DNA of 64,000 nucleotides. Source: Parcubacteria group bacterium LiPW_30. GTDB lineage: Bacteria; Patescibacteriota; Minisyncoccia; Phycocordibacterales; VMEP01. The DNA lies in NCBI GenBank assembly GCA_007375595.1, contig VMEP01000001.1, positions 557,089 through 621,088 on the forward strand, in the 5' to 3' direction. Positions 42,828 to 43,628 of this stretch are shown here, in pieces. The notes below the pieces were generated by a model that saw only the letters and a list, made by a program, of their open reading frames with translations, was not told the origin of the DNA and did no database searches. How positions within the stretch are numbered: position 1 is the first letter of the stretch; each line of letters begins with the position of its first letter. A program made the translations under genes and the position numbers.

Positions 42828-42942
42828 CTAAAAAAGACTTGGAAGCTTTTCCTGTTTATTTTTTGCACACTGCTCTTTTATTTGCTAGATTAAACTCCAT
42901 ATTCCGGAGTAGTTGAAATGCGAATAAATAGAGCATTTCAAA

Positions 42943-43003
42943 GGCGGAGGCTGACGAGCCGAGCCGGGGTCGCAGAATTTTTCAGCAAAAAAATATCTGT
43001 GAC
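42943..43003. repeat. Copy of the MITE-like repeat family (GC module plus GAATTTTTCAGCAAAAAAATATCTGTGACC)
   Basis: Immediately upstream of tRNA-Asn. A 12-nt copy of the tRNA 5' end (TTCCGGAGTAG) also lies at 42902-42912. Confidence 0.5.
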
Positions 43004-43038
43004 CTGCGGTCCCGCTGAGATACTCCTGATATATATAT

Positions 43039-43113
43039 TCCGGAGTAGCTCAGCGGTAGAGCGGTCGCCTGTTAAGCGATTGGTCACAGGTTCGAATCCT
43101 GTCTCCGGAGCCA
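43039..43113 (+). tRNA. tRNA-Asn (anticodon GTT), CCA encoded
   Basis: UCCGGAG acceptor pairing, D-arm GCTC/AGCGGTA/GAGC, anticodon loop CTGTTAA, T-arm ACAGG/TTCGAAT/CCTGT, discriminator G plus CCA. Closely similar to E. coli tRNA-Asn. Confidence 0.9.
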
Positions 43114-43139
43114 GAAATAGTTAGCCCTGTTGTGAAAGC

Positions 43140-43475
43140 AATGGGGCTTTACTATTTTCCTCCGGAGACAGGATTCGAAAGATTTTGCGGGCACCTGTTT
43201 AGCAAAACAGGTCGCAAAATCAGGGTTGAGAAATTTTTCCGCTCGACGGAGCGGAAAAATGTTCTTGACCGAACCTGTCTCCGGAGCTTGTAAAAACTTT
43301 AGACCCCTTTTAGGGGTCTTTAGTTTTTTAAGAGTTTTTAAGCTCTGGAGAGTAAGCAACCAGATTTGCTTGCGTACAGGATTCGAAGGGCGGAGGTCGG
43401 CGGACCGAGCCGGGGTCGAGGAAAATTTTAGCAAAAATTTATCCGTGACCGAATCCTGTCTCCGACTCTTAATAA
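43140..43475. repeat. Cluster of four partial copies of the tRNA-Asn 3' end (T-arm plus acceptor), direct and inverted, interleaved with hairpins
   Basis: 20-nt inverted copy at 43152-43171. 14-nt direct copy at 43273-43286. 11-nt inverted copy at 43378-43388. 15-nt direct copy at 43450-43464. Also contains the repeat-family copy at 43388-43450. Confidence 0.65.
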
Positions 43476-43628
43476 CTTTATTTCCTTGCCATAAAAAACA
43501 CTAAAAGCTTAGTATTACGTAAAATTACGTTTGTATTATACAATTTACTGGGATACGTAACCGGTGTTCGTGTCTGGTAGTTTTTAATGTTTCTTTAGCA
43601 CCGTACTTTCTAATAGCAGGAGAAAATC

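Follow-up and report, generated by a model that had tools for sequence, protein, structure and literature searches.

Three small structured non-coding elements with arms copied from an intact tRNA-Asn gene in a Patescibacteria genome

The attP site of the CTX phage is a folded single-strand site that is recombined by XerCD at dif, integron attC sites are likewise folded, and tandem inversion duplications formed by snap-back at quasi-palindromes have been described in Salmonella. Small non-autonomous repeats, among them MITEs (miniature transposable elements bounded by inverted repeats), REP/BIME/REPIN, Rickettsia palindromic elements, Correia elements and yeast mitochondrial GC clusters, are short, hairpin-forming, GC-rich in AT-rich DNA, multi-copy, modular and mostly intergenic (compare PMC4478555, PMC2229807). 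Islands and prophages of the Islander type target the 3′ part of tRNA and tmRNA genes, leave the gene intact and carry a displaced direct copy of its 3′ part at their outer boundary (compare PMC4383910). Here, the surroundings of a tRNA-Asn(GTT) gene were analysed in a 64,000-nucleotide (nt) stretch of Parcubacteria group bacterium LiPW_30 (assembly GCA_007375595.1, contig VMEP01000001.1, positions 557,089–621,088, forward strand; referred to as the window). The copies of the tRNA ends around this gene make up the arms of three modules, U1, U2 and U3, which are small and non-coding, and they are not leftovers of large integrase-borne islands. We hold it somewhat better than an even bet, at a probability of roughly 0.55, that the intact gene was colonised three times by small, non-coding, non-autonomous structured elements, with U1 on the 5′ side and U2 (proximal) and U3 (distal) on the 3′ side.

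The tRNA-Asn gene was assigned with ARAGORN and Rfam (73 bits; coordinates of all features in Table 1), and a single-strand fold of 42890–43500 reached −297 kcal/mol (z = −13). An initial annotation had described direct and inverted partial copies of the gene's ends on either side of it, and a repeat finder recovered all of those listed. With up to 3 mismatches allowed, the 3′-end 18-mer CGAATCCTGTCTCCGGAG had four occurrences in the window, where 0.02 were expected, and none of 100 shuffles contained as many. Some extents had to be adjusted. The 5′-end copy placed at 42902 with 12 nt is a direct copy of 14 nt (42899–42912, ATATTCCGGAGTAG, 100% identical to 43035–43048). The perfect 20-nt inverted copy of the 3′ end, given as 43152–43171, was off by 8 nt and lies at 43160–43179, and an 11-nt inverted copy at 43378–43388 was found as 12 nt at 43376–43387. 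The direct copy of 14 nt at 43273–43286 stood as the exact part of an 18-nt copy with 3 mismatches (43269–43286), and that of 15 nt at 43450–43464 was 100% identical. Both named hairpins were present, as were two repeat-family copies (42929–43004 and 43375–43450, 76% identity). Overlooked had been an inverted copy of the 5′ end just upstream of the gene (43012–43029, 18 nt, 89% complementary to 43039–43056) and the region 43180–43268 as a diverged family member. Direct repeats of the tRNA 3′ end (43093–43110, 43269–43286, 43450–43464) bound inserted segments, and the tRNA gene itself is intact.

Each unit holds a core between two arms. The core region common to U1 and U3 measures 68 nt; copy 1, in U1, matched the covariance model R1 at 93.2 bits (E = 1.6e-23) and the nhmmer profile at E = 2e-20, and hairpin A reads GGTC/GACC in copy 2, in U3, versus GGCT/AGCC in copy 1, a compensatory change. 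The variant core of U2, core-2, gave a weak R1 match (43212–43270, E = 0.0025), and its boundaries equal those of core-1, with AGA at the start and TGAC at the end, followed by C. Among the loci used for comparison, which are given by L numbers, core-2 occurs at the same locus in L013 and L063, and in L099 it follows an inverted copy of a tRNA-Ser 3′ end, with compensatory changes in its inner hairpin. Hairpins resembling hairpin C of U1 stand 5′ of the core in a conserved TGAAATGCGA...GCATTTCAR version in L022, L047, L069, L071 and L135 and in looser versions in L065, L073 and L114; counterparts of hairpin E of U3 were found in L021, L031 and L073.

Both arms of each unit pair and close a multi-branch fold (z = −4.3 to −12), the stem of which reproduces the target. 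In the predicted fold of U1, the inverted 5′ copy 43012–43029 pairs with 42903–42912; the right arm of U2 and 43160–43179 close a fold of −77 kcal/mol (z = −12), and the closing structure predicted for U3 is cloverleaf-like. The tRNA 3′ end together with 43160–43179 also forms a perfect hairpin of 20 bp with the trailer as loop (−62 kcal/mol, z = −12.7).

The core was further traced by a pattern scan of metagenome contigs, which yielded at least 120 loci and was seeded with the core pattern itself, so that the frequencies obtained are not population estimates. Among the matches listed, at least 41 AT-rich metagenome loci carry the full motif. An nhmmer profile search gave 63 matches across the window and the contigs examined, and outside the window at least 50 core matches were located in 43 AT-rich metagenome contigs and two related contigs. 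Within the window the core is present at least 10 times, and model R1 run with no filters found about 11 modules, roughly one copy per 6 kb. The element family is widespread in Patescibacteria and apparently undescribed: no description was found in full-text literature. Rfam returned nothing but tRNAs in the window at the gathering threshold, nothing relevant over 42500–43900 at E up to 10, and tmRNA and tRNA matches alone in 20 other loci. Near the copies in the 43 loci no protein gene was shared, save open reading frames (ORFs) reading through the core; one core reading frame is open at many loci and yields spurious ORF clusters.

The core is a structured, length-invariant segment of about 62 nt (AGA...GTGAC), with a distance of 60 nt from CGGAGG to GTGACC in 32 of the 36 listed copies. 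Covariation was assessed on a 40-copy alignment for three helices, namely two main hairpins and a short, almost invariant third stem. Standard pairs filled 96.8% of cells, changes on both sides were seen in 14 of 22 pairs and 105 cells were compensated; none of 500 shuffles equalled the observed level, and slid controls paired at 35–51%. Hairpin A (GGNN-GNCG-NNCC) was found as GGCU/AGCC, GGUC/GACC, GGCC/GGCC, GGCG/CGCC, GGGC/GCCC and GGAC/GUCC, and conserved unpaired bases are kept in addition. The stretch CUGACGAG of copy 1 suggested a hammerhead ribozyme, which was rejected: it is this covarying 4-bp tetraloop hairpin, and the CUGANGA/GAAA motif is not conserved among copies. G-U wobbles (G38–U67 in hairpin B in 40/40 copies, G12–U29 in 31/40) are formed in tRNA sense only, and therefore the fold exists on the given strand only, as RNA or as single-stranded DNA.

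Of the 63 core matches, 31 lie within 450 nt of a tRNA gene (Trp, Ser, Leu, Lys, Ile, Arg, Tyr, Val or Asn); the nearest tRNA is on the same strand in 31/31 and the core is downstream of it in 29/31. The order is constant: after the tRNA and its trailer or terminator comes an inverted copy of the gene's 3′ part, next the core, and last a direct copy. At the right junction, GTGAC is followed by T-loop C56 and the tRNA sequence on to the gene end, and at the left junction the reverse complement of the tRNA 3′ part precedes AGA, its inner end being the complement of T54. As the inverted copy ends at T54 and the direct copy starts at 56, the junctions are offset by 2 nt. Over 20 independent tRNAs share exactly these inner junctions; on its outer side the inverted arm is variable, measuring 6 to 20 nt. 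The T-loops of tRNA-Leu (TTCAAGT) are non-palindromic and give ACTTGAA at the left; the left arm must therefore be a genuine inversion, as opposed to a direct T-stem copy. Plain T-loop insertion with target-site duplication was rejected, as it fits the palindromic TTCGAA loops only and fails at these Leu loops. The offset of 2 nt was also found at two targets other than T-loops, CA/CAAAAAC (L037, L100) and CG/GACAAA at a tRNA-Ile end (L076, L137).

In AT-rich loci, a direct copy of at least 10 nt accompanied 15/26 tRNAs with a downstream core versus 2/17 without one, and an inverted copy of at least 9 nt 11/26 versus 0/17; the two core-less tRNAs with a direct copy carry related modules. The tRNA-end copies thus track the core element and are essentially not found independently of the small repeat. 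The second tRNA gene of the window, tRNA-Glu(CTC), shows the same layout on the minus strand, and a terminator stands between it and its inverted copy. In L111 (7313–7832), a copy was seen directly downstream of a tmRNA gene, with inverted and direct copies of the tmRNA 3′ end.

With the tRNA/tmRNA islands the units share the three traits named at the outset; events stack in both, and in relatives this tRNA is occupied by a true integrase island. Unlike islands, the units are non-coding, 125–136 nt long here (~90–180 nt elsewhere), include an inverted target copy and have no integrase associated, and one core serves at least 10 tRNA species (tRNA-Glu and the nine found no further than 450 nt from a core-1 copy) and a tmRNA. 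The traits of small non-autonomous repeats listed above apply as well, including, as for Rickettsia palindromic elements, an occasional in-frame copy within a gene (L065); unlike in those repeats, the terminal inverted repeats do not belong to the element but derive from each target, what is conserved is an internal structured core, the orientation is strictly sense and the T-loop junction is nucleotide-exact. As at CTX attP and integron attC, inverted and direct target copies stand at one insert end around a structured spacer of ~60–90 nt, the target is regenerated, arrays are possible, structure but not arm sequence is kept, and one strand is selected; unlike there, these 125–136 nt (~90–180 nt elsewhere) are the whole unit, the arms match many targets, and no recombinase was tied to them. 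The direct-inverted-direct order with hairpins at both turning points recalls the Salmonella tandem inversion duplications, from which the units differ in scale (tens of nt versus kilobases), in the conserved core at one turning point and in their precise, recurrent junctions.

Signs of mobility were sought in relatives. A genome scan for the tRNA 3′ end identified two close relatives with an identical tRNA-Asn, L013 and L014. U1, U2 and a longer U3 are present in L013. In L014, the flank up to the tRNA is 94% identical and U1 is absent: ATATTCCGGAGTAG occurs there once, and twice in the window, where it flanks 122 extra bases as a 14-bp duplication. Because it is missing from this otherwise near-identical site, U1 was classed as an insertion. 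At the corresponding position, two loci with HIT proteins 89% and 82% identical to that of the window (L001, L002) have another core variant, and their short-read contigs end within the unit. In L089 the whole unit is in exact tandem duplication, and the mnmA gene of L065 (~2600–2760) contains hairpin C and core, ~99 nt, in frame, with the ATGHY motif on one side and KDQSYFL on the other. At the tRNA-Ser gene of L099, a core-2 unit is distal to a core-1 unit, the opposite of the stacking order at tRNA-Asn in the window. The units are small, non-coding, multi-copy and insertion-polymorphic, as MITEs are; conserved terminal inverted repeats, a further mark of MITEs, were not found, the arms differing per locus and equalling the local target, and a parent transposon was not found among the 43 loci.

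On the colonisation reading, the elements would be mobile, or recently so, and would insert directionally at hairpin loops, chiefly tRNA and tmRNA T-loops. A break or exchange staggered by 2 nt would leave behind a functional tRNA and a displaced 3′ fragment. As the strand-specific fold suggests, the intermediate may be a single strand (DNA or RNA) that, when folded, presents a double-stranded imitation of the site it targets; a putative enzyme would act in trans, and newer insertions would push older units outward into a stack. Several points count against this. No transposase, integrase or reverse transcriptase was tied to the element, so that the case for mobility is made from one empty site, that of the 5′ unit U1, and from indirect signs; an empty/filled pair is known for U1 alone and for none of the 3′ units. 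U1 is moreover mirrored (direct copy, core, inverted copy, tRNA) and lacks the 2-nt rule, and it may have arisen by another route, for example template switching. The folded single-strand mechanism would be drawn from analogy to CTX attP and integron attC, and the seeded scan bears on the frequencies as stated above. Core conservation, covariation and strict co-orientation with tRNAs and flanking genes fit a host-beneficial RNA equally well, and host RNA function and mobility may coexist.

It is accordingly conceivable, if rather unlikely, that the units serve the host as genes of a small structured RNA, which would be co-transcribed with tRNA and tmRNA genes or lie behind them and whose closing stem mimics the acceptor/T-arm minihelix of the neighbouring tRNA, for maturation or recognition by tRNA-processing enzymes; the arms would then be functional and not scars. 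This would account for the strong covariation, the conserved unpaired nucleotides and the strand-specific G-U wobbles, for the co-orientation with tRNAs in 31/31 cases and for the sense orientation of 4/4 window copies that lie between co-directional genes (including the tRNA-Glu unit). Inverting the final ~12 nt of a tRNA gives the acceptor-5′ and T-stem-5′ strands, which necessarily makes the stem a minihelix, and the cloverleaf-like U3 fold is in line with this reading. Arms are, however, often partial or degenerate (L031, L084, L127, U3 of the window), a terminator often stands between tRNA and unit, and copies occur inside a coding gene and in other composite repeats; presence/absence polymorphism and tandem duplication were seen as well, and a density of ~1 copy per 6 kb is more typical of selfish repeats.

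Relatives carry true islands at this gene. Serine recombinases cut with a 2-nt stagger, and a large one of 532 aa (Resolvase, Recombinase, Zn-ribbon) is encoded in L014 (3722–5320) downstream of and convergent with the identical tRNA-Asn, with a split homologue in L015 (3871–5592). Both end in PNWLRRQDSNL before the stop, coded by the complement of the tRNA 3′ end: the gene and tRNA-Asn overlap with their tails, the last ten recombinase codons being complementary to tRNA positions 46–76, and the overlap is kept between recombinases of only 37% identity. Homologues (68–100% identity) adjoin tRNA-Asn in 6/7 related loci, the adjacent, convergent arrangement being found in L014/L017, L015, L020, L146, L147 and L149. 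Identifiable cargo (L017, L020, L143, L147) includes restriction-modification or other defence genes and exceeds 10 kb in L017 and L020. The far (attR) end was not reached within 10 kb (5.5 kb in L015) in L015, L017, L020, L146, L147 and L149; one 14/15 match is probably due to chance. It follows that the locus is a genuine hotspot of integration in this lineage, and the designation as such in the initial annotation stands, here with three independent small insertions stacked, U1 missing in L014 and the recombinase clade in the relatives.

That the copies are degraded attL/attR sites left by such tRNA-Asn-targeting islands, as was first proposed, with the core as part of an island attachment arm, is nevertheless improbable. 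The existence of a tRNA-Asn-specific recombinase clade with C-terminal codons from the tRNA 3′-end complement speaks for it, a terminator-like hairpin or trailer of its own comes after each direct 3′-end copy in the window, as it does in displaced fragments of integrated elements, and the 2-nt stagger of serine recombinases equals the 2-nt junction offset. Against it, only ~160 nt of non-coding DNA separate the repeats, the copies track the core, and integrase stacking predicts direct repeats only and does not explain inverted copies. Core and layout recur at nine other tRNA species, a tmRNA, non-tRNA sites and inside a coding gene; a tRNA-Asn-specific recombinase cannot explain such a spread. 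No core was found within 10 kb of any recombinase examined, and the island-proximal sequence of L014 and L015 holds neither inverted copy nor core. The cognate integrase that had been suggested was met in relatives, not in the window: tblastn with the relatives' recombinases found no large serine recombinase in the 64 kb, the tRNA overlap being the only match (tyrosine recombinases were not exhaustively searched), and no integrase flanks the array among neighbouring ORFs.

Nor did 43629–45335 (59-aa ORF, 8xMP, GGDEF) gain support as the current island. These genes show no mobile or defence signature, are unrelated to the recombinase-island genes and were not found in the 2.3 kb downstream of the L013 array; the region downstream of the array is variable between relatives. 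A defence island was set aside, since PADLOC gave generic GGDEF/Cas10-palm similarity only. At 43997–45335, a gene of the 8xMP octameric-membrane-protein family lies beside a stand-alone GGDEF cyclase, and GC falls to 0.35.

Least probable is an origin without dedicated machinery, in which a nascent strand would snap back at hairpins (the terminator, the T-arm or those of an earlier repeat) during replication or repair and so produce the direct-inverted-direct zigzag as a tandem inversion duplication on a miniature scale. The pivots are indeed hairpins (the terminator for tRNA and inverted copy, the core for inverted and direct copy), an AT palindrome marks the inverted-copy/tRNA junction of U1, the U2 right arm reads CGAA-CCTGT without T60 as predicted for T-arm snap-back, and the variable outer boundary of the inverted copy fits, so that the order of copies and perhaps U1 could be explained. 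Random template switching would, however, lack the precision of nucleotide-identical inner junctions, offset by 2 nt throughout in over 20 independent tRNAs, and it leaves the same core at each site unexplained; an inverted-plus-direct palindrome was absent from core-less tRNAs (0/17), which also speaks against this origin.

Further candidates were rejected. For a phage attP with this tRNA end, no viral contig matched the 20-mer; the two viral contigs with the core pattern gave no core-profile match. A TnpB/IscB-style guide RNA, with the core for a scaffold and the tRNA 3′ end for a guide, was set aside, as this guide, sequestered by the inverted arm, would hit the adjoining intact tRNA gene, and no associated nuclease gene recurs. 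Template/variable repeats of a diversity-generating retroelement were discarded, the duplicate copies of L037 differing without adenine specificity. A retroelement primer-binding site was ruled out, as the inverted copy ends at the discriminator without CCA (TTCC-CTCCGGAGAC, not TGGCTCCGGAGAC). The ORF 43084–43434 (minus strand) was dismissed as a recombinase remnant: Pfam gave no match, and its overlap with the recombinase consists of tRNA-complement codons alone.

Group I introns at position 35/36 of Patescibacteria tRNA-Asn genes have been reported (PMC13011429). In L016 (JAUYKI010000003.1), tRNA-Asn halves were found at oriented positions 6094–6132 and 6679–6714, with ~546 bp, a 104-aa HNH-like ORF included, between them; the interrupted gene is accounted for by these introns, the flanking fragments are not. 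Inverted and direct copies of the tRNA 3′ end flank a different 48-nt insert at this locus. In L070, L115, L125 and L130, the core is an internal module of a larger composite repeat with inverted repeats TGTCATCC...GGAATGACA at its bounds. In the window, at 12390–12600 and 3076–3155, several core and hairpin-B modules form a cluster with an 11-nt inverted repeat (CTTTAAAAACA/TGTTTTTAAAG) at its edges, and a core in truncated form lies inside the palindrome GTCTTAAGAC, and a 5-nt target duplication at this place would mimic inverted arms.

Upstream of the array lie the housekeeping genes priA, def, fmt, cyclophilin (PPIase), HPF, YggU and HIT, and downstream a 59-aa ORF, an 8xMP membrane protein, a GGDEF protein, truB, a SET-domain protein and VanY. 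Named relatives of the HIT protein are all Patescibacteria, for the most part Paceibacterota. The HPF and YggU genes are separated by ~97 bp of hairpin-rich DNA (41998–42100), which was classed as another small insertion of a different family because it is absent in L013, L014, L001 and L002.

Table 1. Positions of the tRNA genes, units and component parts in the window.
Feature	Position	Strand	Remarks
tRNA-Asn(GTT)	43039–43113	+	intact, CCA encoded; 75/75 identity in relatives L013, L014
Unit U1	42899–43034		direct 5′ copy, hairpin C, core, inverted 5′ copy
U1 distal arm	42899–42912	+	4 upstream nt and tRNA positions 1–10, direct, ATATTCCGGAGTAG
Hairpin C	42913–42941	+	TTGAAATGC-11 nt-GCATTTCAA; optional 5′ module of the element family; 9-bp stem
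Core-1 copy 1	42942–43004	+	AGG-CGGAGG-hairpin A-GAGCCGGG-hairpin B-GTGAC-C
U1 proximal arm	43005–43038	+	linker, inverted tRNA positions 1–18 (43012–43029), AT palindrome touching the gene
Trailer	43114–43159	+	intrinsic-terminator-like hairpin at 43123–43148
Unit U2	43160–43287		inverted 3′ copy, variant core, direct 3′ copy
U2 left arm	43160–43179	+	perfect 20-nt inverted copy, tRNA positions 54–73
Core-2 (variant core)	43180–43268	+	AGATTTTGCGG...hairpin...GGGTTGAGAAATTTTT...TTCTTGAC
U2 right arm	43269–43287	+	direct copy of tRNA 3′ part, CCGAACCTGTCTCCGGAGC
Terminator-like hairpin after first displaced fragment	43292–43328	.	43301–43319 bidirectional
Unit U3	43343–43464		split inverted 3′ copy with hairpin E inserted, core, direct 3′ copy
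U3 left arm, three pieces	43343–43387	+	acceptor-like CTCTGGAGAG 43343–43352, hairpin E 43355–43372, inverted T-stem/T-loop ACAGGATTCGAA 43376–43387
Core-1 copy 2	43388–43449	+	R1 83.5 bits, E = 7e-21
U3 right arm	43450–43464	+	direct copy, tRNA positions 56–70, CGAATCCTGTCTCCG
tRNA-Glu(CTC)	16712–16785	-	second tRNA of the window; same layout as tRNA-Asn
Unit downstream of tRNA-Glu	16437–16672	-	degenerate inverted copy 16655–16672 (78%), hairpin-B-type modules (R1 16560–16641), 11-nt perfect direct copy 16438–16448
R1 modules in the window	42937, 43383, 12392, 12463, 12520, 3081, 24584(-), 16560(-), 34258(-), 32797(-), 43212 (U2), 50289(-)		

The exact T-loop placement with target-copied arms is unlike known MITEs, REPs and integrase sites. 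Tentatively, and with the odds against it, the units could represent a new target-mimicking insertion system, with a folded strand, a T-loop-to-3′-end copy, an enzyme in trans, a 2-nt stagger and arms rebuilt per target, or else a new Patescibacteria-specific class of tRNA-linked structured RNA with a minihelix-mimic stem. In practice, short-read assemblies break at the units, which also give rise to spurious ORFs and pseudo-tRNA fragments and could pass as island boundaries in tRNA-fragment-based prediction. Patescibacteria genomes are tiny and thought to be streamlined; nonetheless, the window holds about one conserved structured element per 6 kb, and the core, present in dozens of unrelated metagenome contigs, is conserved like many riboswitches, yet has no Rfam match. 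The family may point to an uncharacterised route of DNA insertion beside tRNA genes, or to a new tRNA-linked RNA.

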